DNA of 64,000 nt, taken from contig OY760142.1 in assembly GCA_963663225.1 (NCBI GenBank), forward strand, positions 1,536,001 to 1,600,000, given 5' to 3'. Both the position numbers and the translations under genes were made by a program. The DNA is from Nitrospirota bacterium. Lineage in GTDB: Bacteria > Nitrospirota > UBA9217. Under the pieces are notes generated by a model that was given only the letters and a program-made list of their open reading frames with translations, was not told where the DNA came from and did no database searches. Below are positions 11,006 through 56,430 of the stretch, piece after piece (position 1 is the first letter of the stretch; each line of letters opens with the position of its first letter).

Positions 11006-12361
11006 ATGAACAGCACGAACCTGAAGAAAATACTCATTGCCTGCATTATTTGTTCAGTATCCATCCTGGCACTGCCTGCTTATGCGGAAGATGAACCTCT
11101 TGCGTACTCCCTGTCCTTCACGGACGCAGAACTGGATGACCTGCTTGCGCCTATCGCGCTCTATCCCGATCCCTTGCTGGCGCAGATGCTGCCTGCTTCC
11201 ACGTATCCAACAGAAATAATTGACGCGGATGAATGGCTTCGAAGCGGAGGCACGGTGGCAGGTATTGACGGCCAGAACTGGGACGAATCCGTCAAGGCAA
11301 TTGCCCACTATCCCGACGTCCTGAGGATGATGGCCGACAATATGGACTGGACCGCCAATCTGGGCGATGCTTTTTTGAACCAACCTGAGGATGTGTCAAG
11401 ATCAATCCAGCATCTGAGGCGGCAGGCAAGAGACATGGGCAACCTGTCCAGTAATGATAAACAGAGTGTGGACATTCTTGAAGAAGGCAACATCGAAATC
11501 ATTCCTGCTCAGCCGCAGTATGTGTATGTCCCGGTGTATGATCCTACCGTCGTGTATTTCAGGCGGCCGTCGCTGAGCATTCCGCCATTTATACTCTTCG
11601 GTCCTCCATTTCTCCTCGGCGGATGGCTCATCATGGATTTTAACTGGGGGCACCATGAGGTGATTTATCATGGCTGGAACCGTCCCGGCTGGGTCAATCA
11701 TGCAAGACCGTATGTACACGTGACGAATGTATATGTTAACAGAAGCAGGCCCGCCATTCAGCAGCGATGGAGGCATGATGCATCTCACGGCGACCCTGCA
11801 AAATATCTTATGACGCGGCCCAGTGGTCCGAAAGCAGACAGCTACTCCCGTATCGGCGAAGTCAGGGGAAAAGCCGTTGTTACACAACCCAAACCGGCCG
11901 GAAGGCTGTTCGATTCCAAGTCCGGTGTTCACACATATAGTAATCGCGGCAGGGAGAGCCGCGGCATAGTGCAGCAGCAAACGTCTCCATCGGCAATGCC
12001 CGGCACCAGTCCGCGAAGGACCATTCCGACGCCCCGCGTGAACGAGCGACCGACGGCACCTGCTCCCGCAGTTAGTCAACCGGTCCAGAAACCTGCTCAG
12101 CAGAGACCGGCAGGAATCAGCAGTGATAAAAAAATGACGAGCGGCACCGGACCTGCTCGTGAGGCACCACAAACCATAAAGCGGCCTTCGACCGCTTTCG
12201 GAGGTTACCGCGGTGCAGACGAGGCCAGAGCACAGAGTATGCGCGGCCAGACCAGCCGTCAGAGCAGCGCAGGCGGTGCTTCATCTACCGTCCACCCGCC
12301 AAATCGGGGCGGCAATCCTCCCGCAGGCGGGCATTCATCGGGAGAAAAGCAACGTCGATAA
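11006..12361 (+). CDS. DUF3300-family exported protein with low-complexity C-terminal tail
   Basis: Signal peptide; LAPIALYPDPLLAQ, WDESVKA and YVPVYDP motifs; Pro/Arg/Ser-rich tail. Confidence 0.85.
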   Translation: MNSTNLKKILIACIICSVSILALPAYAEDEPLAYSLSFTDAELDDLLAPIALYPDPLLAQMLPASTYPTEIIDADEWLRSGGTVAGIDGQNWDESVKAIAHYPDVLRMMADNMDWTANLGDAFLNQPEDVSRSIQHLRRQARDMGNLSSNDKQSVDILEEGNIEIIPAQPQYVYVPVYDPTVVYFRRPSLSIPPFILFGPPFLLGGWLIMDFNWGHHEVIYHGWNRPGWVNHARPYVHVTNVYVNRSRPAIQQRWRHDASHGDPAKYLMTRPSGPKADSYSRIGEVRGKAVVTQPKPAGRLFDSKSGVHTYSNRGRESRGIVQQQTSPSAMPGTSPRRTIPTPRVNERPTAPAPAVSQPVQKPAQQRPAGISSDKKMTSGTGPAREAPQTIKRPSTAFGGYRGADEARAQSMRGQTSRQSSAGGASSTVHPPNRGGNPPAGGHSSGEKQRR

Positions 12362-12413
12362 GAAATGTGAACGTTGGTAAAAGGATATTTTTTGCAGAGA
12401 AAGGAAGCATATT

Positions 12414-13382
12414 ATGGCGACAAAGACCGGCAAGAAAACATTCCAGAATACTGCGCACGCGGTTGCTTTATTTATAATATGTGCGGCAATAATCACGATC
12501 GGGAGCATGTCGGTTACAGCGCAACCAACGCAGCAGGTATTCTCGTCTCCGGAGGATGCATTGAAAGAATTGGCAGCGGCAGTTAAAACGAAAGACAAAA
12601 CCGCGCTTGCCCGCATATTCGGGCCGTCCGGAGAAGAACTGCGCGCTACTGACGCGGTGCAGGCTGCCGCTGAATTCGAAGAATTTTCGAAATTATTGAC
12701 GATGAAGGCAAGCTTGGTTAAAGAGAATGAGTCGAAAGTGGTCCTTTATATAGGAAATGAAAACTGGCCGTTTCCAATCCCGCTGATTAAAACGAACAAT
12801 CAGTGGGTTTTTGATACAGAAGCAGGGAAAGAAGAAATTTTGAACCGCAGAATTGGCGAGAACGAGCTGACGGCCATCCTGGTTTGCCGTTCCTATGTAA
12901 AAGCCCAGCGTGAGTACGTACTGAAAGACTGGGATGGTGATGGAATTTTGGCGTACGCACAGAAGCTCCGGAGCGATCCGAACAAAAAGAACGGCCTCTT
13001 CTGGAAACGGGTTCCGGGCGAACCGGTAAGCCCTCTTGGTGAACTCGTGGCGCAGGCCCGGATGGAGGGATACCGGAAGGAAAAGTCGTTATTTAAAGAA
13101 GAGCCGGTGCCTTTTCACGGCTATTACTTTAACATCCTCACGAAACAGGGCAAACGCGCACCGGGAGGGAAATATAGTTACATTGTAAATGGAAATATGG
13201 TCGGGGGATTTGCTCTTGTTGCCTTTCCGGCGGACTGGGGCAAATCGGGAGTAATGACTTTTATTGTGAATCAACAAGGCAAGGTGTACCAGAAAAATCT
13301 CGGAGAAGAAACTCTGAAGATGGCCTCGAAAATGAAGATATACGATCCTGACGAGACATGGGCACTCGTTAAGGGCCAATAA
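12414..13382 (+). CDS. DUF2950-family protein
   Basis: WPFPIPL, RRIGENE, PFHGYYF and GVMTFIVN motifs; usual partner of DUF3300. Confidence 0.85.
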   Translation: MATKTGKKTFQNTAHAVALFIICAAIITIGSMSVTAQPTQQVFSSPEDALKELAAAVKTKDKTALARIFGPSGEELRATDAVQAAAEFEEFSKLLTMKASLVKENESKVVLYIGNENWPFPIPLIKTNNQWVFDTEAGKEEILNRRIGENELTAILVCRSYVKAQREYVLKDWDGDGILAYAQKLRSDPNKKNGLFWKRVPGEPVSPLGELVAQARMEGYRKEKSLFKEEPVPFHGYYFNILTKQGKRAPGGKYSYIVNGNMVGGFALVAFPADWGKSGVMTFIVNQQGKVYQKNLGEETLKMASKMKIYDPDETWALVKGQ

Positions 13383-13688: not shown

Positions 13689-13826
13689 AAAACTAAACAG
13701 CTCTTATTAATTCAAAATCCAACGTCAATTTAAGAATAAAACTCATACTGCCAATTGATTAAAAAGTTCCGAGCTTCTTTGACAGGTGGCCTTTAAGAAG
13801 CTACAATTTCCCCTAAAGGAGGTATT

Positions 13827-15083
13827 ATGAGGAAAATCGTCATATGCGCCAGCCTGCTGTTCGTAATCCTTCTTGCGTATTCTGCTTCCCCTGCCTACTC
13901 AAAGTCAAGCCAGCCCCAAATTAACGCTTGTGTTGCGTGTCATACCAGCGACCAAACCTTAAAGAAGCTGTTCATACCCCCCAAGGTCCAGGCCTCGGAA
14001 GGAGAAGGGTGAGCAGGGGTGCCACCGTCAGTTCCGGCGGAACTGATGTACAAGGCGTTCCTGGTTGACAAGGATTTGCTTGATCAGGACGCGCATTTTT
14101 CAGAAGGTTGCAGCCCGTGCCACAAAGGCAATGAAAAAGGAAAAGGCAAGGAAGGGGCACACCGCGGCATGGTAAAACGGCCGTCAGATAATCTTGCTGT
14201 CTGCGGAAAATGCCATGAGGATACTTCGCAGCATTACAAAACAGCTCTTCACTATACCTCAGCAGGCCAGATGCATGGAGTCAAGGCGAGATTCAATGAG
14301 AAGGAATTCAAAGCATTTGATCAGAAAGTCTTTGGAAAATCCTGCAGGAGCTGCCATGCATCCTGCGGAGATTGCCATGTAAAATCTCCATCCATAGGAG
14401 GCATCGGAACAGGATTTATCAAGGGGCACCAGTTCGTAAAACGTGATGAAGGAAAAACATGCGGTATCTGCCACGGAGGCAGAGTGTATCCGGAATACAC
14501 CGGCGACTATGGCGGCTCAGCAGACGTCCATTACCAGAAAGGAATGCTCTGTCTGGACTGCCATAAAAAATCGGAACTGCATGGCAATGGTACGGCTTAT
14601 CAAGGAAGAAAGGAAGTCCAGGGACGGCCTGCCTGCGTTCAATGCCATCCCCGGGGCAGTGAAAAAACGGACACCTCGAAGACCGCCCATGTCCAGCATG
14701 GAGACAAGGTGAGTTGCTATGCGTGCCATTCAGGGGGAACCTACAGAAACTGCTACGACTGCCACCTTGGGAAGGGTGCATCATCAAAACCCGGCTTTAT
14801 CCTGGGAATAGATCCACAGAATAAAAAAACCGTTACTACCCTGAGACTGATACCAACCGTACGGGACACATTCAAACCGGCAGGAATTTCTATGGCAGGT
14901 TTTGATGCGCTCCCGAACTACTGGGGCACGTCGCCTCACAATATCAAAAAGCGCACCGAACGCACCCGGTCGTGTGACGTGTGCCATCAGGAGCACAAGG
15001 ATTTTCTGACAAAAGAAGGATTGATACCAAACGGTTCCAAGGCGAATGAAGGCCTAATTTATGACTTTAAACTCAATAAATAA
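13827..15083 (+). CDS. exported multiheme c-type cytochrome (11 CxxCH) with predicted selenocysteine at residue 62 (TGA 14010-14012)
   Basis: ORFs 13827-14012 and 14019-15083 share a frame. The signal peptide and 1 CxxCH lie before the TGA, and 10 CxxCH with no signal peptide lie after it. A SECIS-like hairpin follows the TGA; AAGGAGG SD. Confidence 0.8.
14013..14051 (+). promoter_or_regulatory. bacterial SECIS-like stem-loop
   Basis: CGTCAGTTCC (14026-14035), GGC loop, GGAACTGATG (14039-14048). The G-containing apical loop starts about 24 nt after the UGA; a lower GTGC/GTAC stem is possible. Confidence 0.7.
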
Positions 15084-15096
15084 AAGGAGGATGCTT

Positions 15097-15993
15097 ATGA
15101 TCAGGAAACGTATGCTGCAAATGCTGGTGTTGGTTCTTATTGTGATGCTGGTGCCCGTGGTGGCGGCAGCACGGGATGCCGCCCCGATTGTATCAACAGA
15201 CTGGCTCGAAAAGAACCTGAAAAACAACAATGTGGTGATTATCGATATTCGGAAGGTGGAAGAATACAAGGCAGGCCACATTCCCGGAGCGGTTAATGCG
15301 GTCTATGGAACATGGGCGATTATGAAGGGTGGCCTGAGAAATGAGCTGCCCGCAGCAGATGACTTGTTTGATGCAATTGGTGCCGCAGGTATTGAGCCGA
15401 CATCAAGCGTGGTTGTCGTAGGGAATGTTGAAACAACACCCGATCGCACCGATGTTACGAGAGTTGCTTGGACACTCAAGTACGCAGGCATTGAAAATGT
15501 TGCACTGCTCGATGGTGGTTATAAAAAATGGTTGGCGGATAAAAAGACGATATCTACCGACGTGGTGAAAGCAAAAACAAAAACATACAAAGGAAAAATC
15601 AATGCCAATCTTTTTACGAACAAAGACTATGTGTTAAGCCAACTTGGTAAGGCAACAATTGTCGATGTCAGGGAAAAAGATTTTTACGAGGGCAAGAAAA
15701 AATTCGATTTTGTAGCTAAAGCAGGAAGAGTCCCCGGCGCAAAGAATTTGCCCACCTCACTTCCTTATACAAAAGAGGGGACATTCAAGGACAAAGCAGA
15801 ACTTACTGCGATTGCGGCGAATGTTGTGGGAACCGATGTATCAAAAGAAATAATCACCTATTGTGATACAGGCAAAGTATGTTCAGCCTGGACATTCTTG
15901 CTGTCTGAAGTCCTTGGATACAAGAATGTAAAGGATTACGACGGTTCTATGGAAGAATGGACAAAAGATCCTAAGGCTCCGTTCGAACCGTAA
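15097..15993 (+). CDS. exported tandem-domain rhodanese/sulfurtransferase
   Basis: Signal peptide; GHIPGA, LLDGG, active-site YCDTG, YDGSMEEW. Its AGGAGG SD abuts the cytochrome stop codon. Confidence 0.92.
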   Translation: MIRKRMLQMLVLVLIVMLVPVVAAARDAAPIVSTDWLEKNLKNNNVVIIDIRKVEEYKAGHIPGAVNAVYGTWAIMKGGLRNELPAADDLFDAIGAAGIEPTSSVVVVGNVETTPDRTDVTRVAWTLKYAGIENVALLDGGYKKWLADKKTISTDVVKAKTKTYKGKINANLFTNKDYVLSQLGKATIVDVREKDFYEGKKKFDFVAKAGRVPGAKNLPTSLPYTKEGTFKDKAELTAIAANVVGTDVSKEIITYCDTGKVCSAWTFLLSEVLGYKNVKDYDGSMEEWTKDPKAPFEP

Positions 15994-16037: not shown

Positions 16038-16238
16038 TTCCACCTGCGCTTAGTCCTCAGCGCCATCCTTCTCCGTGTCTTTTGCCACGATGCTTTCCAG
16101 CCCCAAAATACGCCTTTTATAGCCGAAACAGGTATTGCACAAGAAAAATTAAAGTATTAAATACCCATTTCGGGCGATTTACTTTCACGGAAGACTATGG
16201 TATGTCATCTGTTAACGATATTGAAGAGGGCATACGAG

Positions 16239-17012
16239 ATGAAAAATGATGGTGAATTTACGCAAGACGGTACCGAACAAAGAAAACATACCCTGCTAAT
16301 TCTCGACAGAGAGCCGCAAGAACTTATTCGAATGTCAAAGCTCTTTGAGCGAATAGGTTATCAAACCGCTACAGCTAGGATGGGTTGCGAGGCATTCAAG
16401 ACAGTAAAGAAGATAATTCCAAACCTGATTCTTACTGCGATGGACCTTGAAGATATGAGTGGAATTGCATTCATTAGTCAGCTCAGCCAAAACAGAAAAA
16501 CAGAACATATTCCAATCGTTGTTTTGAAAGGTCCCCAGGATCTTGCCAGGGAACAAGATTATCTTGGCGCTGGCGCAGCGGTTTGCCTGTGTAAGTCGTC
16601 TTCGATCGAAACGATGTATCAAACAATGCAGAGACTCCAGAAGAAAGAATTGCGGGAAAAAATCCGCATTCAAACGCATCACCCTGTTAAGATTGAGACT
16701 GCCCCGTTCTGCGATCATTATGGCATGCACACACTGACGTTATCGGAACGGGGGATGTTTCTTTTCAGCAGGGTGCATGCCCCTGAAAATACCAGGCTTG
16801 CGCTCCGTATTAATCTACAAGGACTTATCATTGCGGCCGAAGCCAGGGTTTTGTACAATGGCCGGTCACGACGTAGTTCTCATCAGGAGCCCGGGTTAGG
16901 GCTTGAATTTATTACTATTGGACCTCAAGACCGGGAATGCATACGGACATTCATAAACAATGAAATAATGAAAGACATTCAGCCGAAAATTAGCCTGCAG
17001 CTATCTGCTTGA
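16239..17012 (+). CDS. pseudo-receiver plus PilZ domain protein
   Basis: REC-like N-terminus lacking the phospho-Asp (LILTAMDL); PilZ REKIR...LSERG...GLGLEF. Confidence 0.75.
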   Translation: MKNDGEFTQDGTEQRKHTLLILDREPQELIRMSKLFERIGYQTATARMGCEAFKTVKKIIPNLILTAMDLEDMSGIAFISQLSQNRKTEHIPIVVLKGPQDLAREQDYLGAGAAVCLCKSSSIETMYQTMQRLQKKELREKIRIQTHHPVKIETAPFCDHYGMHTLTLSERGMFLFSRVHAPENTRLALRINLQGLIIAAEARVLYNGRSRRSSHQEPGLGLEFITIGPQDRECIRTFINNEIMKDIQPKISLQLSA

Positions 17013-17040
17013 TAATTTTTCCAGTTAATTTTTTCAATAT

Positions 17041-17640
17041 GTGAACAATGGTTGGAATTTTGATATAATCATGACTAAAAGCGGCCTACAAATGGAGACC
17101 TTAGCTATGCAGAGGGTACGCGGTACAGCCTTTATAATTATCCTGACATTTTTTGCAACGCTTCAGGCTTGTGTAGCGGGTGTTCATCTCCTGCCGAAAT
17201 CGGCAGACCCGTCGGAAATTAAAGGAACTTATACGCTTATACTCTATGGATGCCGGTACGCAGATGATTTGGAGAACGTGGCTGTTCTTGTAGACGCAAA
17301 AAACAAGTATAAATTTGAAGTTTATGCGCTTGAAAACATGTATAAAGTAAAAAAAGAAGTTTCGGGTTCAGAGGCAATTCGTGAAGCAAACGCATTTATC
17401 AACTGCAGCATGCATACCGTATGGCAGACGGTGCTGCGCAGAATTTCCGATGCCGACGGCAGAACCATCGCATACGAACTGAAACCATTATACAGGCCAT
17501 GGGAATTTAAGATTTCAGAAGTACTGTTGTCTTCGTACGTGTTGCACGACGACACGGTGACGGCTTACTTTACGCTTGATCCGTCGGTGAAAATGGACGA
17601 TGGACCTTTAATCTGGCCAAGAACCCTGAGACGTTATTAG
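17041..17640 (+). CDS. hypothetical exported or lipoprotein (start possibly 17107)
   Basis: Hydrophobic N-terminus ending LQAC (possible lipobox). Confidence 0.6.
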   Translation: MNNGWNFDIIMTKSGLQMETLAMQRVRGTAFIIILTFFATLQACVAGVHLLPKSADPSEIKGTYTLILYGCRYADDLENVAVLVDAKNKYKFEVYALENMYKVKKEVSGSEAIREANAFINCSMHTVWQTVLRRISDADGRTIAYELKPLYRPWEFKISEVLLSSYVLHDDTVTAYFTLDPSVKMDDGPLIWPRTLRRY

Positions 17641-17699
17641 AGTACGGCACGCTGTTCACAATGGCTGCAGTTTGTATCCAAGCAAGAGGAGAGACAAGT

Positions 17700-18104
17700 A
17701 TGCTTCAAAATAAGATCGTAGCCCGCTACCAGGATGGCCGTGTAATAAAAGGATTCACCAGCGATTTTATGCCTGGAAAAAATATGCTGCACCTCAGTGT
17801 CTTCGGCGCACAGCCGAATTCGAAGCCCATACCTGTTTCTGTTCAGGAGTTAAAAGCGATTTTTTTTGTCAAGGACTTTACGGGAAATCCTGCGTATCAG
17901 GACAAAAGAGAATTCGATCCGGAGAAACCGGTTGCAGGTCGGAAGATTAAGGTGATTTTTAAAGATGGAGAGCTTTTGGTAGGAACTACACAAGGGTACC
18001 AACCAGGCCGGATAGGATTTTTTGTCTTCCCGATAGACCCGAAATCGAATAATGACCGCTGCTTTGTTGTCTCTCCCGCCACAAAAGGTATCTGGCTCGT
18101 CTGA
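17700..18104 (+). CDS. conserved hypothetical protein (DUF6982-like)
   Basis: KIVARYQDGRVIKG, LKAIFFVKDF, FKDGELLVG and GFFVFP motifs; GAGGAG SD. Confidence 0.7.
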   Translation: MLQNKIVARYQDGRVIKGFTSDFMPGKNMLHLSVFGAQPNSKPIPVSVQELKAIFFVKDFTGNPAYQDKREFDPEKPVAGRKIKVIFKDGELLVGTTQGYQPGRIGFFVFPIDPKSNNDRCFVVSPATKGIWLV

Positions 18105-19098: not shown

Positions 19099-19709
19099 GA
19101 ACAGTCTCCTTAAAAAGTTTCTGAAGAATGGTTCGGCAGCAGCATAAAAACCGACTGTAATCCGATCGATTATAACATATTTCAAATTGTCGTATACCAG
19201 AAAATCATAAATATACAGATAACCTGATAATAACAAGTATTGCGGGAATGATTAAAGTAGACTATAATTAAGCGTTCTATCGTTCCGAAGCATTATAGGG
19301 TACCATGCAGCGTATCGAATTGTAACCCAAAATAAGTAAGAGCTGTCAAGCATAGCCAACAGATAAAAAGAAAGGTGGCCTTATGCTCAGTTCAAACGTG
19401 CTGCTGCGAATTCCTATTCCCGCGTTTTTTCTCTCTCCGGACTGCTTGCCGGAGCAGTCCACGGGGAATCAATCTCACCTGACGAAGAAATTATCATTAT
19501 CGGCGGCAATCGAAACTATCCTCTATTATACGAATTCCTTCAACAAAGTAATGCCTGATCCAAAAGTGGCGCATACCTTGCTCGATAGGGGGAGATATGC
19601 CTTCACAAGCGAATAGCCGTCATAAAAAGAGCTATAATAAGTAACAAGTATCTAGCGTATCGAGGCCCACCGCATTCATGGTTAACTTCATGGACAAAAG
19701 GAGAAAAAA

Positions 19710-20696
19710 ATGAAAAGTCTGGTAAGCGTGCTTTGCATTGTAGTGCTCACAGTTGTTTTTACCGTACCTTCATTTGCAGCGGACAAGGACCAATATCCTT
19801 CTAAGGTAATAACAATCATTGTGCCATTCTCCGCTGGGGGACCGTCAGACACGGTAGCCCGTCTGCTCGCTCAGGCCATGGGACCGGTCCTCAAGACGCA
19901 GATTATTGTTGAAAATGTCGGTGGTGCGGGTGGAACCATTGGAGCCGCCAGGGTTGCCCAGGCTTCGCCCGATGGATATACGCTCTTTGTGCATCATATC
20001 GGTCATTCCACGGCCCCGGCACTTTATCGCAAACTGCCTTACGACCCTATCAGGGATTTTGAACCGATCGGACTGGTCAATGATGGAGCAATGGCTCTGG
20101 TGGCCAGAAAAAATTTTCCTGCAGACAACCTCAAGGAACTGATCACCTATGTAAAAGCCAACAAGGACAAAGTCAATCTGGCCAATGCGGGCGTAGGCTC
20201 CGCTTCGCATTTGTGCGGGATACTTTTTATGTCCGCCATCCAGACGGACTTCATGACTATTCCGTATAAGGGAACGGGACCGGCCATGAACGACCTTCTC
20301 GGCGGCCAGGTGGATTTCATGTGCGACCAGACGACGAATGCCACGAGCCATATCAAAGCCGGAAAAGTCAGGGTGTATGGCGTGACCACGAAAAAACGAA
20401 TCGATTCCATGCCGAATGTTCCTACGATGAGTGAGGCGGGCCTTCCGAATTTTACGATAACCGTCTGGCATGCCCTGTATGCACCGAAAGGCACGCCAAA
20501 ACCGATTATTGCGAAGCTCTCAAAGGCTTTGCAGGAGGCACTGAAGAACCCCGTCTTAAAACAACGGTACGCCGATCTGGGCTCCGAACCTGTTGCGCAG
20601 AACCGCGCGACTCCCGAGGCCCTCAGAGCTCATCTCAAGGCTGAAATCAATAAATGGGGACCGATCATAAAAAAAGCAGGTGTGTTCGCAGATTGA
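19710..20696 (+). CDS. tctC: tripartite tricarboxylate transporter substrate-binding protein (TctC/Bug)
   Basis: Signal peptide; IVPFSAGGPSD, ENVGGAGG, PDGYT, PYKG. Confidence 0.9.
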   Translation: MKSLVSVLCIVVLTVVFTVPSFAADKDQYPSKVITIIVPFSAGGPSDTVARLLAQAMGPVLKTQIIVENVGGAGGTIGAARVAQASPDGYTLFVHHIGHSTAPALYRKLPYDPIRDFEPIGLVNDGAMALVARKNFPADNLKELITYVKANKDKVNLANAGVGSASHLCGILFMSAIQTDFMTIPYKGTGPAMNDLLGGQVDFMCDQTTNATSHIKAGKVRVYGVTTKKRIDSMPNVPTMSEAGLPNFTITVWHALYAPKGTPKPIIAKLSKALQEALKNPVLKQRYADLGSEPVAQNRATPEALRAHLKAEINKWGPIIKKAGVFAD

Positions 20697-20711
20697 TCTG
20701 GGGAGGGTGGT

Positions 20712-21173
20712 TTGAGACATATAGTGCGCAACACAAAAGATTTCTGGATCGGCCTCATCTATATCGCTATCGGATCTGCTGCCCTCATAATCAGCAGAGA
20801 CTATGGCATGGGTACGGCGGTGAGGATGGGGCCGGCCTATTTCCCCATCATACTCAGCGTTCTTTTGGTTACGATCGGGATAATTTCACTTATTCGTTCA
20901 TTTCTTAAACCAGGCGGTCCTGTCGGCGACTTTGCATGGAAAGGCTTTTTCTTCGTCATCGCGTCGACCATCCTGTTCGGTTTTATCGTTCGGGGAGCAG
21001 GATTGCTTATTGCGTTGCCTCTCCTGATAATCATCAGCTCCTGCGCAAGCACCCGTTTTCGCTGGCAGTACTCGCTGGCGTTGGCAGCCGGTGTGACCGT
21101 ATTTTGCATTTTGGTATTTCAAAAAGGGCTGGGAGTTCCGATTCCCATTGTGGGGCCATGGTTCGGACAATAG
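20712..21173 (+). CDS. tctB: tripartite tricarboxylate transporter TctB
   Basis: MGPAYFP motif, 4 TM helices, located between tctC and tctA. Confidence 0.88.
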   Translation: MRHIVRNTKDFWIGLIYIAIGSAALIISRDYGMGTAVRMGPAYFPIILSVLLVTIGIISLIRSFLKPGGPVGDFAWKGFFFVIASTILFGFIVRGAGLLIALPLLIIISSCASTRFRWQYSLALAAGVTVFCILVFQKGLGVPIPIVGPWFGQ

Positions 21174-47918: not shown

Positions 47919-49982
47919 ATGAAAAATCCCATCTTTGTGAAACCGGGGATGTCGGCCCGGGAAATTGTCAAGGCGGTCCGTTCTCTCAAGTGCGTGTCGT
48001 TCACATCGGTCAGCATGCGGGACGCCAGCCAGTCCGATTTTAAAAGCCGGATTCGGAGCTACGATTTAAAAACCCTTGCCGCCCATTACAACAACATGGG
48101 GCTGTTCAGCGCGGAGTGCCACGGCGGAGCCCGCTGGCATGTGGGCATCATGAGCAGAAAAGAAAGCCCTTTTGAAGAGACCGCCATTTTCCGGAAGCAC
48201 ATGCCGAATGTGCTGCAACAGACCCTTATCCGGGAGACGAACCTGTGGGGGTATCGCCCCTATCCGAAAAACGTCATCGAACATGTGGTCTCACAGGTGG
48301 ACATTGATGTATGGCGCTGTTTCTCGTTCCTGAACGACGTGCGCAACATGCGCACCGTGGCGGAAGTGGTGATGAAGCGGGGAAAGCTGTTCGAACCGAC
48401 CATAGCGTTCACGGTGGCGGATTGGGCGACCAACGAGTATTACCTCGGCGTCGTGCGGGACATCGTCAGCCTTTGCGGGGGCACCGATGAAATCGTGCTG
48501 TGCATTAAGGACATGGCGGGTGTGGGCGATGTCTGCCGGGTCGGCAACCTGGTAGATGCGATCAAACAAGCGTATCCGGACGTGGTCATCAATTATCACC
48601 GGCACATTACGGACGGCCTTGCGATTCCGGCGTTCCTTTCGGCAGCGCGTGCCGGAGCGATGATTTTCGATGTTGAAGAGGATTCTCTCGTTCGGTTTTA
48701 CGGACATTCGCCGGTGCTCGCGGTGAACGCGATATTTCGGGAGGCCGGAATTCCGGTGCATCTCAACCTGCCGGAAGCGGAAGCAGCCGTGCAAAAAGTC
48801 AGGGAATGGATCGGGCATTATGAATGGGCGGAATCGCCCTTCAAAGGGCTTGACTATACGGTAACGCATCACAGAATGCCGGGTGGCGCCTTCGCCAGTT
48901 CTTTCGAACAGGCGAACAAGGGCGAGTTTCTGCCGCTTATGCCCGCCATCCTGAAGTTTATGTCGCTGTACAACAAAATCGTAAAGTATTTCGACGTTAC
49001 GCCCGGCTCGCAGATTACCTGGGTGACCTGCGGCGGGATCGTGAACCGGTATGCAAAAGAACGGGGTGAAGCGGGGGTCAACCATATTATTGACCTGCTG
49101 AGCCGGTTTGTTGAAGAAAAAAATCAGAATTTTGCCGCCCTGAGCCAAGACGAGCAGGAAGAAATGCTTCAATTGTTCCGGAATGCGCCGGGTGATTTTA
49201 AAAACCTGCTGCTCGGAGATTACGGGAAACTGCCCAGCGGCTGGCCTGCGGACTGGGTCTATCAGAGCACGTTCAACGATGAATGGAAAACGCGCATACA
49301 GGAGCGAACAGAGCTTTCCCCGCTTGAGGCTGTGCCGGATGATGATTTGGACAAGATCCGGCAGGAATTGACCGCCAGAATCGGAAGGGCGGCAACCGAG
49401 GAAGAATTTATTCTCTATTTGATGCATCCGAAAGATTCCCTGGAATTCATTGCCTTCAAGGGGAGCTTCGGCGAAGCACCGCTGGTGCTGCCAACCAATG
49501 TCTGGAGATCGGGCCTGCACAAGCCGGGGGACAGGGTTGATTTCGAGCTTTGGGGAAAACCGTACACCATAGAACTTGTCTCGGTCGGTACGGAGCACGC
49601 GGGCATCATTCATGTCGTGATGAGGATCAACAACAAAACGAAAGTGTATCTTGTTGAGACGCCCCGGGCAAAGAAATCCGAGATACGGATGGCCAAAGGG
49701 CCGCTTGACATCGGGGCGCCGATCAACGGCAGTGTCTGGAGAATCGGCAACGCGGCGCGCGGCGCGGTCAAGGTGGGAGACATCGTGCGCAAGGGAGAAG
49801 AGATCGCGAATCTTGAGGCGATGAAAATGGAAAACGTGATTCTTGCGCCCATTGACGGCCATATCGCAGAAGTCTGTGTTAAGCTGAACGACACGGTACA
49901 GGAAGGCCAGCTTCTCTTTGTGATTGAGAAAAACGCGGGCAAAGCAAAGCTTTCCGAAGAAGAGTGCGTTGTGCAGATGTAA
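47919..49982 (+). CDS. carboxyltransferase plus biotin carrier subunit (pyruvate carboxylase subunit B-like)
   Basis: RDASQS, IKDMAG, HxH, MPGG, VTPGSQ, biotinylation site EAMKM. Confidence 0.88.
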   Translation: MKNPIFVKPGMSAREIVKAVRSLKCVSFTSVSMRDASQSDFKSRIRSYDLKTLAAHYNNMGLFSAECHGGARWHVGIMSRKESPFEETAIFRKHMPNVLQQTLIRETNLWGYRPYPKNVIEHVVSQVDIDVWRCFSFLNDVRNMRTVAEVVMKRGKLFEPTIAFTVADWATNEYYLGVVRDIVSLCGGTDEIVLCIKDMAGVGDVCRVGNLVDAIKQAYPDVVINYHRHITDGLAIPAFLSAARAGAMIFDVEEDSLVRFYGHSPVLAVNAIFREAGIPVHLNLPEAEAAVQKVREWIGHYEWAESPFKGLDYTVTHHRMPGGAFASSFEQANKGEFLPLMPAILKFMSLYNKIVKYFDVTPGSQITWVTCGGIVNRYAKERGEAGVNHIIDLLSRFVEEKNQNFAALSQDEQEEMLQLFRNAPGDFKNLLLGDYGKLPSGWPADWVYQSTFNDEWKTRIQERTELSPLEAVPDDDLDKIRQELTARIGRAATEEEFILYLMHPKDSLEFIAFKGSFGEAPLVLPTNVWRSGLHKPGDRVDFELWGKPYTIELVSVGTEHAGIIHVVMRINNKTKVYLVETPRAKKSEIRMAKGPLDIGAPINGSVWRIGNAARGAVKVGDIVRKGEEIANLEAMKMENVILAPIDGHIAEVCVKLNDTVQEGQLLFVIEKNAGKAKLSEEECVVQM

Positions 49983-50362
49983 GCGGTGACTTCTTCTCAA
50001 TTCAATATCACCCGGTATCCTGATGCCGTTTACCAGGTCGCCTGTTACGGGGTGAGAAACAGGAAAAATAAGACTACAGGACCGATAAGCTGCTATACCC
50101 TGTACCGAATAAACGGTATACCAGCAGTTGCAGTACCACATTTTATCCAAAGCAGACAACAACGAAGCCTTCTCTAGTCATGTCTTACGCTGTGAAAACA
50201 ACCCCACCTGGTGGCGCCACCAGACGTGATATCTGCCGGTGAAAGAAGGATTTCCGCCCGTTTTTTGCAGAATCTCCCCTTTACTTTTATTTTTTAATCG
50301 TGCATAATGCATCCTACCTTTTAAGGATAGATTTCCTGTTGTGATTATCGAGGAGGATAGTT

Positions 50363-54725: not shown

Positions 54726-54939
54726 GGAGATGGTCCCTCCTTAGATAGTGCTACTATAACCATACGCTTATTTTTCGTCAAGAGACATGAAGAACAGTTG
54801 CGTATAAGGGAGGGGCTTCCGCATGTGAGCAGGATCACACAGGGATTCTCCGCGCGGTGAATATTCACTTTACTTTTTTTTGAATAATGAATATAGTTAA
54901 TCTCGTTATCACTTCAAAGAATATTGAGGAGGATTGTTT

Positions 54940-55356
54940 ATGGAGAGGACCTTCGGCATTATCAAGCCGGATGCAGTCAGCAGGAACATCACGGGAAAAA
55001 TTATTTCAAAAATTGAAGAAAACGGTTTTACCGTTGTTGCCATGAAGAAACTTTGGCTCACCAAAAAACAGGCCGGAGGTTTTTATGCCGTGCACAAGGA
55101 CAAACCCTTTTTCCACGACTTGACGGAGTACATGTCTTCAGGGCCGTGCATCGCCATGGTGCTTGAGAAGAATGATGCCATTGCCGCATGGCGAAAGCTT
55201 ATGGGGGCCACGAACCCTGCAAAAGCCGATCCCGGTACAATCCGGAAGGAGTTTGCGGTTGATCTTGAAAAAAACAGTGTTCATGGCTCTGATGCGCCGG
55301 AGACAGCAGCGTTTGAAATCGCCTATTTCTTCAATAATCTTGAAATGACAGCCTGA
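54940..55356 (+). CDS. ndk: nucleoside diphosphate kinase
   Basis: [22 protein letters not shown]. Confidence 0.97.
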
Positions 55357-55440
55357 CCCAGGGCCTTGTATCGGCTCCGCTGTGCAATGGCTATGCTGCT
55401 GTTTGCAATAATTTCTGCGTTGACAAAAAGGAGGTTTGTT

Positions 55441-56430
55441 ATGAGAGCAGTTCTTTTTAGACTTCTACTCATCACAGTGCTTGTCGGCCTGATGGCAGGA
55501 TGCTCTTCCGTGACTCCGAAATATACGTTTACGATCAATGAACCGATTGTATCCAATATCAAGTATGACGTCGGCCAGAAAAAACCGGTTGTATTGAAAA
55601 TCGTCGATCAACGAGCGAATAAAACGTTTCACACAGAGATGGGCATGTTATCGGCTGCGCAGGTTTCTCTGGTGAATGCCACAGATCCGATTGCCTGGTT
55701 CTCACAGGCATTGGAAAAAGAATTCGCAGCGCGCGATATCCCTGTGAAAGTTGTAGACAAAAACTCATCCATAACAGCGGATGTGGTTCTCACCATTAAA
55801 CGATACCAGATTACCAGCCGTTTAGTTGCCTGGCTGACCCCCTGGGAATCATACCATTCTTTTCTTGGAGAGCTCGCCTCAGAGGGCAAGACTTATGGAA
55901 TTCGCTCATACTTCTTTAACGGAAAAGTATATGGTGGCGGGCTGAAGGAAATTGAAGATGCGATCTATAATACACCCATGTCGATTCTGGTTAAGGATAT
56001 TGCATCGAAAATAAACCGGTATGCGCTGCAGTATTCTGCAAGCGACGCCAAAATCAGCGAAATCCAGCTTCGCACGCAAAAAAAGATAAAATCACAGGAT
56101 GATGATGCATACCGGCTGGTGCTCGAACTGGGAAATTCGAATAATCCGAATGCGGTAAAATCCCTAGTTGCGTTTTCTGCAATTGAAGATCGGTTTGCCA
56201 GGGCATGTGCTCTTTCCGGCATAGGGACCCTTGGGGCCCAGGACCAGCTCGGATTTCTTAAAAAGAAATACGCAGAACTGAACGGAATTGACAAATTTAT
56301 GGCGCTCAAAGCAATCGGCGATATAGACACCGCTGATGCGATTGATTATGTAAGAAGAATGAGGCACGATCCGATGTACAGCAGTGAGGACGGCTTAAAG
56401 TATGCAGTAGATATATATCTCGAACGATAA
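55441..56430 (+). CDS. lipoprotein with C-terminal HEAT-like repeats
   Basis: Lipobox MAGC; ALSGIG and ALKAIG helical repeats; AGGAGG SD. Confidence 0.75.
   Translation: MRAVLFRLLLITVLVGLMAGCSSVTPKYTFTINEPIVSNIKYDVGQKKPVVLKIVDQRANKTFHTEMGMLSAAQVSLVNATDPIAWFSQALEKEFAARDIPVKVVDKNSSITADVVLTIKRYQITSRLVAWLTPWESYHSFLGELASEGKTYGIRSYFFNGKVYGGGLKEIEDAIYNTPMSILVKDIASKINRYALQYSASDAKISEIQLRTQKKIKSQDDDAYRLVLELGNSNNPNAVKSLVAFSAIEDRFARACALSGIGTLGAQDQLGFLKKKYAELNGIDKFMALKAIGDIDTADAIDYVRRMRHDPMYSSEDGLKYAVDIYLER

Follow-up and report, generated by a model that had tools for sequence, protein, structure and literature searches.

A predicted 11-heme c-type cytochrome selenoprotein, encoded across an in-frame UGA next to a tandem rhodanese gene in a Nitrospirota bacterium

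The cytochrome locus and its neighborhood

The DNA analyzed here (the window) is a stretch of 64,000 nucleotides from a Nitrospirota bacterium (contig OY760142.1, positions 1,536,001 to 1,600,000 of the forward strand). It contains a single reading frame whose sole interruption is a TGA codon and which closes with a TAA at 15081-15083 (Table 1). In the original prediction, two ORFs had been joined across this TGA: a first one of 61 aa ending in GAA GGA GAA GGG TGA, and a second one reached by continuing in the same frame through GCA GGG GTG CCA. Both were found as described, and the ORFs at 13827-14012 (61 aa) and 14019-15083 were merged into one cytochrome gene. The joined product comprises 418 aa, with a predicted selenocysteine (Sec, U) at position 62. 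It begins with a predicted signal peptide and contains 11 CxxCH motifs, all of which had been listed beforehand (CVACH, CSPCH, CGKCH, CRSCH, CGDCH, CGICH, CLDCH, CVQCH, CYACH, CYDCH, and CDVCH). The part downstream of the TGA has no signal peptide of its own, in agreement with the earlier reading. Hydrophobic N-termini ahead of the first CxxCH were also present in the homologous loci. Since CVACH lies upstream of the TGA, it is lost when the gene is called from 14019 or 14047. Its residues C35, C38, and H39 are invariant among 40 full-length sequences, and an in-frame upstream CxxCH was detected in 78 of the 79 TGA loci (the exception being L083).

Pfam searches matched the protein to Cytochrome_C7, Cytochrom_c3_2, and an MtrC/MtrF domain; the scores for PF14522 (53.5 bits) and PF14537 (35 bits) were both above the cut-offs. 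With 11 motifs, a hydrophobic N-terminus, and matches to multiheme models, the product has the characteristics of a multiheme c-type cytochrome. Outside the CxxCH motifs it contains no conserved Cys, and only nine conserved non-motif His are available for the 11 hemes. The promoter-like element upstream of the gene is a consensus match only; six such sites occurred in the region, compared with 3.9 ± 1.9 in shuffled sequences.

Table 1. Position of the cytochrome gene, its predicted elements, and the adjacent gene in the window
Feature	Position	Strand	Basis or remark
Promoter-like TTGACA-17 nt-TACAAT	13779..13807	+	11/12 consensus matches; just upstream of the cytochrome gene
Shine-Dalgarno-like AAGGAGG	13816..13822	+	Sequence reading; 4 nt ahead of the ATG
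Coding sequence, predicted 418-aa periplasmic 11-heme c-type cytochrome selenoprotein	13827..15083	+	Frame and TGA conservation, Pfam
Predicted signal peptide, MRKIVICASLLFVILLAYSASPAYS	13827..13901	+	About residues 1-25; cleavage site by eye
First heme motif, CVACH	13929..13943	+	Residues 35-39; upstream of the TGA
UGA codon, predicted to be read as selenocysteine 62	14010..14012	+	E-G-E-G-U-A-G-x-P-P context
Predicted family-conserved SECIS core	14024..14041	+	Pairing, synonymous-site entropy, fold energy
Earlier-drawn 10-bp hairpin, CGUCAGUUCC-GGC-GGAACUGAUG	14026..14048	+	Fold; window and two close relatives
Exported tandem rhodanese, 298 aa, co-oriented	15097..15993	+	Pfam PF00581, adjacency

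Immediately downstream, preceded by a ribosome site (AAGGAGG at 15084-15090), lies a gene for a tandem rhodanese. PF00581 matched its product with 123 bits in two stretches, and the catalytic Cys256 (YCDTG) is located in the second domain. This association is widespread: PF00581 matched 66 of the 77 ORFs found downstream (that of the window among them), and 65 of the 77 encode orthologues at a minimum of 40% identity, all 65 of which retain Cys256. In two further sets of loci, the rhodanese gene adjoined the cytochrome gene in 15 of 17 and in 8 of 14 cases, and its adjacency extends over cytochrome subfamilies sharing only 31-42% identity. In the single locus in which Arg replaces Sec (L077, n = 1), no adjacent rhodanese orthologue was found. 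The link between cytochrome and rhodanese is one of genomic neighborhood only. The neighbors encoding DUF3300, DUF2950, response-regulator/PilZ, and DUF6982 proteins were found by tblastn in only 2 of 79 loci and thus lie outside the conserved module.

Conservation of the TGA, its hairpin, and the selenocysteine machinery

Homologues had been expected to carry TGA at the same column. This was observed in 79 of 80 homologous genome loci, the remaining locus (L077) having CGA (Arg) instead, and in all 45 column-covering matches within an independent sample of 401 genomes from the Desulfobacterota side. The window's genome together with 60 relatives yielded five matches, all with TGA, among them two paralogues of about 31% identity in the relatives. 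Over the 79 and 45 loci, the stop at this column was always TGA and never TAA or TAG. An error, a possibility raised at the outset, is contradicted by two independent public assemblies from other studies, whose contigs (depths 12 and 20) have the same TGA unchanged. Two other public runs, one of them of raw reads, gave no coverage of 13950-14110, and no RNA data set is listed for this stretch.

Protein conservation spans the TGA without a break. The frame and the peptide A-G-x-P-P-x-V, located between the TGA and the candidate downstream starts, are kept in 78 of 78 distinct segments, and the G-U-[AG]-G context persists down to 31% identity. The candidate start codons themselves are not conserved: most homologues have an Ala codon (GCN) where the window has GTG, and many have Q, R, K, or Y in place of the M of MYK. 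The TGA is conserved and not an error, and this TGA-split arrangement is far beyond chance.

Two overlapping hairpins can be drawn just 3′ of the TGA. The one conserved in the family has a stem of 5-6 bp, formed in the window by five pairs (14025-14029 with 14036-14040) around the loop AGUUCC (14030-14035); a sixth pair, 14024/14041, is U-A in 75 of 78 homologues and A-A in the window. Its loop contains an invariant G and U (G28/U29), nt 22-23 counted from the U of UGA. In bacterial SECIS elements, the loop lies about 16-37 nt from the UGA, with G23/U24 in Escherichia coli fdhF. Across the 78 distinct segments, 95.3% of cells were paired in this core, compared with 31-57% when the partner strand was slid, and three pairs were changed on both sides. 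Synonymous-site entropy was 0.00-0.61 bit in the stem versus 1.27-1.97 outside. Part of this conservation follows from the conserved peptide P-P-[SP]-V-x-A-E. A more distant subfamily has its own version, in which the stem has 8 bp, the loop is GUU, and three loci (L134, L136, and L138) show compensatory swaps. These features, i.e. a stem-loop 3′ of the UGA, a G/U-containing loop, and apparent selection as RNA, are those expected of a bacterial SECIS element.

The hairpin drawn originally was a different one. Its 10-bp stem with GGC loop does exist (14026-14035 with 14039-14048), and the minimum-free-energy structure computed for 14005-14070 includes it (−29.2 kcal/mol, z = −2.9, a stability matched by 2 of 200 shuffles). 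As the family SECIS, it was rejected: among the 78 distinct segments, 54.0% of cells were paired, which equals the shuffle mean of 54.1%, and the stem is restricted to the window and two close relatives. Hence the claim of a hairpin with a G in its loop just 3′ of the TGA stands and holds throughout the family, whereas the conserved element is the shorter, overlapping one. The two structures exclude each other. In the window the family hairpin, with 5 bp and −6.9 kcal/mol, is weak and faces competition from the stronger lineage-specific stem (−13.8 kcal/mol). A search of the whole window with Rfam at gathering thresholds returned no families, any applicable SECIS models included, and no tRNA was found in the window.

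The genes selA, selB, selC, and selD had been expected elsewhere in the genome, and all were found: the window's genome encodes tRNA-Sec (anticodon tca), SelA (597.1 bits), SelB (375.9 bits), and SelD (372.2 bits). Its selD is itself of the Sec type, carrying a TGA and its own SECIS with an 8-bp stem and a GUU loop. Among the sampled genomes, selA (E up to 1e-60) was present in 42 of 44 carriers, yet also in 371 of all 401, so that its co-occurrence with the TGA gene is non-discriminating. In two genomes of unstated completeness (G178 and G339), the TGA gene was present without a selA match.

Cys had been expected to replace Sec in other lineages, and this was borne out by distant full-length sequences: among 39 stop-free wider homologues, nine had Cys at the column in a G-x-G-G context (G-C-G-G) and four further ones an adjacent 'CA', making Cys the commonest replacement in the wider superfamily (13/39). 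At this column, the seven close full-length homologues have R, W, Y, S, A, W, and A, and none has Cys. Some of these may be artifacts; W occurred in P0033, P0076, and four distant sequences, and may reflect a TGA read as Trp by the gene caller on short contigs. In the close subfamily, Cys is thus not the usual substitute, and loss of the residue is possible. The R, Y, S, and A forms, named beforehand as a sign against a selenoprotein, are outweighed by the conservation of the TGA and by the Cys forms of the superfamily.

Taken together, the TGA conservation, the hairpin, the Sec machinery, and the Cys forms support the proposal of one 418-aa periplasmic protein with Sec62. Judged from sequence comparison, 13827-15083 is very probably one gene whose UGA is decoded as Sec62 by SelA, SelB, SelD, and tRNA-Sec under the direction of the SECIS hairpin located 12-31 nt downstream, yielding an exported cytochrome with 11 covalently bound hemes. 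With the same high confidence, Sec62 is placed between the first and second heme motifs, within a loop rich in glycine (G-U-A-G).

A crude scan of the window for in-frame TGA junctions gave 14 further candidates, four of which were checked with Pfam; none of the four was selenoprotein-like. The junction at 20694 is the boundary between TctC and TctB, and that at 55354 marks where the NDK gene ends. The minus-strand frames around 63253 and at 48294-50360 matched no Pfam family.

Relation to known proteins and possible function

Among the closest known systems is MccSep (= ExtKL) of Geobacter sulfurreducens. MccSep has five hemes, Sec325, and a heme-ligating partner, Cys239, and a combination of Sec and heme is reported to be able to reduce polysulfide (PMC13510729). 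MccSep and the predicted 11-heme selenoprotein have in common that they are multiheme c-type cytochromes of the periplasm, that an in-frame UGA followed closely by a SECIS specifies their one Sec, and that annotation splits their genes in two. Desulfobacterota and Nitrospirota contain both. Each has a rhodanese encoded nearby (ExtH in the ext cluster for MccSep, the immediately downstream gene here), and reduction of chalcogen-chalcogen bonds may be their shared chemistry. The architecture differs, as anticipated in the original prediction: Sec325 of MccSep lies near the C-terminus (...PDG-U-PTP...), whereas Sec62 of the 11-heme protein lies near the N-terminus (EGEG-U-AG), and this protein has no conserved Cys outside the CxxCH motifs. 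The MccSep/ExtKL model NF040886 matched neither the protein at E up to 10 nor anything in the genome. In a PDB profile search, MccSep (9wt8/9wt9) gave a marginal match (E ~0.01) confined to a stretch of heme motifs (213-295), and it was absent from the 16 chains with Z of at least 2 in a wide structural search.

The best fold match in the wide VIA-align search was octaheme tetrathionate reductase of Shewanella oneidensis (1sp3_A), aligned to model residues 87-418 (Z = 9.8, rmsd 4.3 Å, 254 residues; the next match had Z = 4.5). On the basis of the model, which is without hemes and has a pLDDT of about 62-64 in the Sec62 segment, the two proteins appear to share a core fold. Octaheme tetrathionate reductase is also periplasmic and acts on sulfur compounds, with a lysine-ligated active heme and a cysteine nearby. 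It differs in having eight hemes instead of 11, sequence identity is 18%, and the Sec-bearing N-terminal 86 residues, including heme 1, lie outside the aligned range. At the sequence level, its profile match was weak (E 1e-8, residues 200-292), and TIGR04315, the model for this enzyme, gave no match at E up to 10; Sec forms annotated in GenBank are listed for TIGR04315 (PMC13188914). The PDB sequence-profile search otherwise revealed local multiheme similarities only (best 5ze8, E 7e-11, 46 residues), and Foldseek against the PDB gave no matches at E up to 0.001. Another bacterial selenoprotein containing CxxCH, the GSU2204 family (NF041027), is an outer-membrane beta-barrel of the MtrB/PioB type (PMC13188914); its profile did not match the cytochrome at E up to 10.

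Based on the rhodanese adjacency, the 1sp3-like fold, the MccSep precedent, and the single Arg-bearing locus L077 (n = 1), we propose that the cytochrome may use Sec to reduce sulfane sulfur or selenium. It would partner with the periplasmic tandem rhodanese encoded next to it, whose Cys256 would hold sulfane sulfur (or selenium) as a persulfide. The selenolate of Sec62 would then attack the chalcogen-chalcogen bond on the rhodanese, or alternatively free polysulfide, thiosulfate, or tetrathionate, and the resulting Se-S adduct would be reduced by electrons from the heme chain, with release of sulfide. The cytochrome would thus be an S-S reductase combining Sec and hemes, analogous but non-homologous to MccSep, on a core resembling octaheme tetrathionate reductase. 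We consider a selenoprotein gene with this mechanism the best explanation as a whole (probability roughly 0.8); taken by itself, the mechanism is an even bet. If correct, it would represent a second, independent solution for coupling Sec to a heme wire beside MccSep (2026), with 11 hemes and a dedicated rhodanese.

Possibly, though this is quite unlikely, Sec62 is in addition the distal axial ligand of one heme, forming a natural His/selenolate heme c with a catalytic role like that of the Cys in TsdA. To our knowledge, His/selenolate-ligated heme c exists so far only in engineered proteins. Sec62 would then leave the iron, take sulfane sulfur from the persulfidated rhodanese as Se-S, and be reduced by the heme wire. 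The likeness to the His/Cys-ligated hemes of TsdA (PMC5146829), SoxAX, and DsrJ is conceptual, namely a chalcogen residue on or beside the iron of a heme c that forms covalent sulfur adducts during catalysis; neither a sequence nor a fold relationship of the cytochrome to these three was found. Such a ligand would imply a new class of respiratory or disproportionation enzymes for zero-valent sulfur in syntrophs and sulfate-reducing Nitrospirota.

An unlikely alternative to the reductase is a genuine selenoprotein acting as a pure electron carrier, or as a reductase of other substrates (selenite/tellurite, nitrite, or metals), in which Sec62 would act as axial ligand to a heme or as a redox-tuning residue and the rhodanese would be a mere neighbor. 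The ratio of about 3.9 kDa per heme, a rough figure from protein length, places the cytochrome in the 'peptide-minimised' class and counts against a reductase mechanism: one review equates this class with pure electron carriers, a very low protein-to-heme ratio being typical of electron-transfer cytochromes (PMC7096707). With nine conserved non-motif His, one or two of the 11 hemes need another ligand, and octaheme tetrathionate reductase is called promiscuous in the MccSep paper (PMC13510729). NCBIfam searches gave weak matches to ExtM, ExtN, and ExtO of the Geobacter selenite/tellurite operon (E ~1e-9), but these are far below the cut-offs and reflect generic multiheme similarity. What speaks for catalysis is that the rhodanese stays adjacent while the cytochromes diverge to 31-42% identity, and that Sec is costly and normally kept for catalytic sites.

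That the UGA acts mainly as a translational switch, allowing full-length cytochrome only when selenium and Sec-tRNA are available, with the identity of residue 62 being of minor importance, is very unlikely. Tolerance of R, Y, S, and A in close full-length homologues (with the CGA of L077 confirmed at the DNA level) would fit such a switch, as would a neighboring rhodanese able to handle selenium. However, TGA is retained together with its G-U-[AG]-G context across very deep divergence, to 31% identity, the commonest replacement in the superfamily (13/39) is Cys, the chemical analogue of Sec, and bacterial Sec codons with a regulatory function alone are not known to us. Finally, it is scarcely credible that the TGA is a true stop separating a 61-aa monoheme peptide from a 10-heme protein whose translation begins at GTG 14019 or ATG 14047: gene callers yield precisely these two products, and the purine-rich GAAGGAGAAGGG before the TGA (the E-G-E-G codons) is Shine-Dalgarno-like and might serve re-initiation, but heme c attachment needs export and the downstream part lacks a signal peptide, both starts are unconserved, frame and A-G-x-P-P-x-V are kept in all 78 distinct segments, the codon is TGA and never TAA or TAG in the 79 and 45 loci, and a SECIS and the Sec machinery are present.

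Spread and annotation of the family

A database search with the cytochrome matched 579 clusters of proteins (E ≤ 0.001), and 516 stretches were confirmed when one genome per species was considered. Carriers numbered 44 among the 401 sampled genomes of the Desulfobacterota side. The family ranges over Desulfobacterota, Nitrospirota, and some Spirochaetota MAGs; labelled carriers include Syntrophorhabdaceae, Smithella, Syntrophus, Geobacter sp. OR-1, Desulfonema magnum, and MAGs labelled Nitrospiraceae. Such organisms are important in sediments and anaerobic digesters, settings in which the enzymes behind sulfur cycling and selenium demand are still to be worked out.

No NCBIfam selenoprotein model matched the cytochrome. 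A review table lists three selenoprotein families with heme or CxxCH, none of which is the 11-heme family (PMC13188914). A literature search found no 'undecaheme' selenocysteine protein, although the family may be listed in supplementary tables, either those of selenoproteome surveys or those accompanying the MccSep paper, and the open literature on cytochrome selenoproteins in connection with rhodanese or polysulfide was limited to MccSep, ExtI, and general reviews. With no counterpart in these three sources, the suggestion of an undescribed selenoprotein family is supported.

The family is routinely mis-annotated, since gene callers cut at the TGA. Among the best 120 database matches, 113 span only 77-84% of the query and seven read through the column; the detached 61-aa N-terminal piece is recorded in the database as well, so that pipelines indeed annotate two genes, as had been suspected. 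Nearly all predicted database proteins therefore start too late to include signal peptide, first heme, and Sec, and the protein has been missed by selenoproteome catalogues and by models of electron transfer, whether extracellular or linked to sulfur. Hundreds of public genomes and metagenomes carry the gene for this predicted 11-heme selenoprotein, and the G-U-[AG]-G context in combination with the hairpin provides a simple rule to repair these gene models.

A single gene for a highly probable eleven-heme selenoprotein

The 61-aa product of the ORF at 13827-14012 has a hydrophobic N-terminus and contains a CVACH motif; the ORF closes with GAA GGA GAA GGG TGA. Its frame stays open past this TGA (14010-14012) as far as a TAA at 15081-15083. 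With the TGA read as selenocysteine (U), the product comprises 418 residues, including U62 and eleven CxxCH motifs, as originally predicted. The gene is present as a single copy in the genome. Among the best 120 database matches, 113 span only 77-84% of the query, and most of these are approximately 346 aa long and begin with the Met of MYK or close to it; the other seven span 97-99%. The databases also contain a 61-aa protein with 95% identity to the N-terminal piece. Given these partial matches and the separate N-terminal entry, gene callers split the cytochrome gene, a point already suspected in the original prediction. The segment 13827-15083 is one gene.

A full Sec decoding set was detected in the genome (3.26 Mb), comprising all four genes (selA, selB, selC, selD) whose presence outside the window had been proposed as a check: tRNA-Sec (Rfam, 62.8 bits; classified by ARAGORN as SeC with anticodon tca), selA (597 bits), selB (376 bits), and selD (372 bits). 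Neither tRNAs nor Rfam families were found within the 64-kb window. The selD gene carries its own TGA at the canonical G-A-G-U-A-C-K site, followed by a SECIS whose 8-bp stem bears a GUU loop, 24-26 nt from the UGA. A second Rfam tRNA-Sec match lies outside the window, directly 3′ of selD (G000:C1:522308-522451, minus strand). It scores 48.9 bits, above the gathering score, yet is 144 nt long, and ARAGORN finds no tRNA there. That it sits right behind a selenoprotein gene is curious; the match may reflect a tRNA-Sec copy, degenerate or interrupted, or chance alone.

Conservation of the UGA and its hairpin

Searching one genome per species yielded 516 confirmed relatives, of which the best 80 were retrieved. 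The TGA occupies the identical column in 79 of these 80 loci, in the context E-G-E-G / TGA / A-G-x-P-P-x-V, and the in-frame upstream part (hydrophobic N-terminus plus CxxCH) is present in 78 of the 79 (exception: L083). One locus only, L077, has CGA (Arg) at the Sec column. When the window's genome and 60 relatives were compared, matches occurred in five genomes, each with one TGA; two of the five are paralogues (about 31% identity) whose stop aligns to the same column. An independent sample of 401 genomes, evenly drawn from the phylum of one carrier, gave 46 matches in 44 genomes, with exactly one TGA in 45; the 46th spans residues 159-409 only. These three data sets agree with the prediction that homologues share the TGA at this column. 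No TAA or TAG was found there among the homologous loci and genomes examined. A sequencing error is contradicted by contigs of two other studies, which cover 13950-14110 at depths of 12 and 20 with the TGA intact and differ solely by a synonymous G>A at 14057.

The hairpin was predicted as a 10-bp stem (14026-14035/14039-14048) with a GGC loop. This stem exists and is the dominant element when 14005-14070 is folded (-29.2 kcal/mol, z = -2.9), but it is not conserved in the family. In an indel-free alignment of 78 distinct 54-nt segments around the TGA, it is paired in 54.0% of cells versus a shuffle mean of 54.1%, shows no excess of covariation, and is confined to the window and two close relatives. 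The conserved element is a shorter, mutually exclusive helix of columns 21-26 with 33-38 (14024-14029 with 14036-14041), paired in 95.3% of cells compared with 31-57% after a shift of the 3′ partner by 1-3 columns. Both-sided changes occur in three of its six pairs, and its loop shows no variation at nt 22-23 (G and U), counted from the U of the UGA; the expectation of a hairpin just 3′ of the UGA with a G in the apical loop was thus borne out by this helix. The E. coli fdhF SECIS has the same geometry, with G23/U24 in the loop. Within the window, the conserved helix forms five pairs (-6.9 kcal/mol versus -13.8 kcal/mol for the competing 10-bp helix).

The conserved peptide P-P-[SP]-V-x-A-E accounts for part of the helix conservation. 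Third-position entropy was 0.27, 0.61, 0.17, and 0.00 bit in the four stem codons, and 1.57, 1.97, and 1.89 bits in the three preceding codons, 1.38 and 1.53 bits in the loop, and 1.27 and 1.80 bits after the stem. Synonymous positions thus agree with conservation of the helix despite the conserved peptide. A distant subfamily (36-42% identity; Sec context G-E-G-U-G-G-x-V-A-P-L-E-P) has a hairpin of its own, equally far from the UGA: an 8-bp stem GUGGCUCC-GUU-GGAGCCAU beginning 12 nt past it, with compensatory changes in three loci (L134, L136, and L138). The UGA is conserved, with a hairpin under selection.

Family, fold and proposed function

Pfam returned generic multiheme domains only, and NCBIfam gave weak matches to ExtM, ExtN, and ExtO, far under the cut-off. 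Three haem/CxxCH selenoprotein families are catalogued in the table of a 2026 review: (i) ExtKL (NF040886); (ii) the GSU2204 family (NF041027); and (iii) octaheme tetrathionate reductase (TIGR04315) (PMC13188914). None of the three models matched the cytochrome even at E up to 10, NF040886 had no match in the window's genome, and the review's table does not include the family of the 11-heme cytochrome. MccSep (formerly ExtKL) of Geobacter sulfurreducens has polysulfide reductase activity and forms a tetramer, each subunit of which carries 5 hemes, Sec325, and a Cys239 that ligates heme (PMC13510729). Heme number, Sec position (Sec325 versus Sec62), and Sec context all differ, in line with the predicted departure from ExtKL. 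Judged by sequence, the 11-heme cytochrome is a family separate from ExtKL/MccSep, with another architecture; the parallel would be one of chemistry, not descent. Bacterial multiheme selenoproteins split by annotation are, as a kind, known since ExtKL/MccSep. In the openly searchable literature we found neither an 11-heme selenoprotein nor this cytochrome-rhodanese pair described, although an earlier survey may list them.

Residues replacing Sec were compared in 39 database homologues, chosen deliberately for matches beginning before residue 35; these are stop-free forms only, so Sec forms are excluded by construction. Cys occupies the column in 9 of the 39, always in a G-C-G-G or similar context, and four more have an adjacent 'CA'. 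Sec thus pairs with Cys forms in the superfamily, as is usual and as had been anticipated. Other residues were Y (5), W (4), A (4), R (3), and L, M, S, H, E, V, and P (1-2 each). In the seven close relatives of full length, the column reads R, W, Y, S, A, W, and A, with no Cys (0/7). The R form is confirmed in DNA by the CGA of L077, where the hairpin is still largely there. Codons for R, S, and W are one base from TGA, and the W forms, found on short contigs, may represent TGA translated as Trp by the gene caller. The main finding that speaks against Sec being strictly essential is these non-Cys replacements in close relatives.

An AlphaFold2 model from a 68-row alignment reached pLDDT 84.8 and pTM 0.80, with only about 62-64 in the Sec62 loop (residues 51-70). 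Foldseek returned nothing significant with this model. In a wide structural search, the top hit was octaheme tetrathionate reductase of Shewanella oneidensis (1sp3; Z 9.8, rmsd 4.3 Å, 254 residues aligned), whose core fold resembles modeled residues 87-418; subsequent hits (Z ≤4.5) were hydroxylamine oxidoreductases, OcwA, and an undecaheme S-layer cytochrome. Nine His outside the motifs are fully or almost fully conserved across alignments (H90, H112, H142, H201, H235, H252, H288, H291, and H371), and no Cys is conserved beyond the CxxCH motifs. With nine such His for eleven hemes, one or two hemes must, on this count, be ligated otherwise or leave a coordination site open.

We propose that the cytochrome would be a periplasmic enzyme that reduces sulfane sulfur (polysulfide, thiosulfate, tetrathionate, or rhodanese persulfide) or selenium, with Sec62 as its reactive residue. 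The 11-heme chain would supply the electrons, and the core would resemble octaheme tetrathionate reductase. We put this function at about even odds because of the non-Cys replacements and the low protein-to-heme ratio. By one review's rule of thumb, such a ratio would suggest a pure electron carrier (PMC7096707), and the selenoprotein may accordingly be a carrier, or a reductase of some other substrate. Less probably, the UGA would act as a selenium-sensing switch in the cytochrome gene. A true stop between two separate genes, as annotated, is the weakest reading beside a UGA conserved with its hairpin.

The rhodanese partner and gene neighborhood

Features of the cytochrome locus and related genes
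Feature	Position	Strand	Remark
DUF3300 protein (451 aa) and DUF2950 protein (322 aa)	11006-13382	+	gene pair directly upstream of cytochrome
Promoter-like TTGACA-17-TACAAT	13779-13807	+	consensus match, upstream of cytochrome gene
AAGGAGG	directly ahead of cytochrome gene	+	read from sequence
Exported tandem rhodanese (298 aa)	starts ATG 15097	+	opens 13 bases past cytochrome stop, preceded by second AAGGAGG
Receiver-PilZ response regulator (271 aa), 199-aa ORF, DUF6982 protein (147 aa)	16197-18104	+	downstream of rhodanese
selD	G000:C1:522565-523479	-	outside window; selenoprotein gene itself, context HGAG-U-ACKLG

In 66 of 77 loci (window counted), the next ORF downstream encodes a rhodanese; 65 of these are orthologues (≥40% identity), and the catalytic Cys256 is invariant. 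Among further loci, a rhodanese adjoins the cytochrome gene in 15 of 17 close ones and, for the distant subfamily, in at least 8 of 14. No orthologue adjoins it in L077, the locus with Arg (n = 1). As gene adjacency, the rhodanese is a conserved partner of the cytochrome. The first downstream ORF encodes an Fe/Mn superoxide dismutase in three of the 77 loci and another multiheme cytochrome in three (L053, L065, and L084 are among these).

The DUF3300, DUF2950, receiver-PilZ, and DUF6982 neighbors are common only to the two closest relatives, and the DUF3300/DUF2950 pair is for this reason probably unrelated to the cytochrome-rhodanese module. The 199-aa ORF had no family match. Two other in-frame TGAs were rejected as ordinary gene boundaries: 20694 (within 19686-21170, plus strand), between TctC and TctB of a tripartite tricarboxylate transporter, and 55354 (within 54928-56427, plus strand), at the end of a nucleoside diphosphate kinase gene.

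One predicted metagenomic protein of 632 aa (P0068) combines the C-terminal cytochrome part with a rhodanese domain. A natural fusion would support a functional link between cytochrome and rhodanese; the alternative is an artefact of gene calling or assembly on this 3-kb contig.
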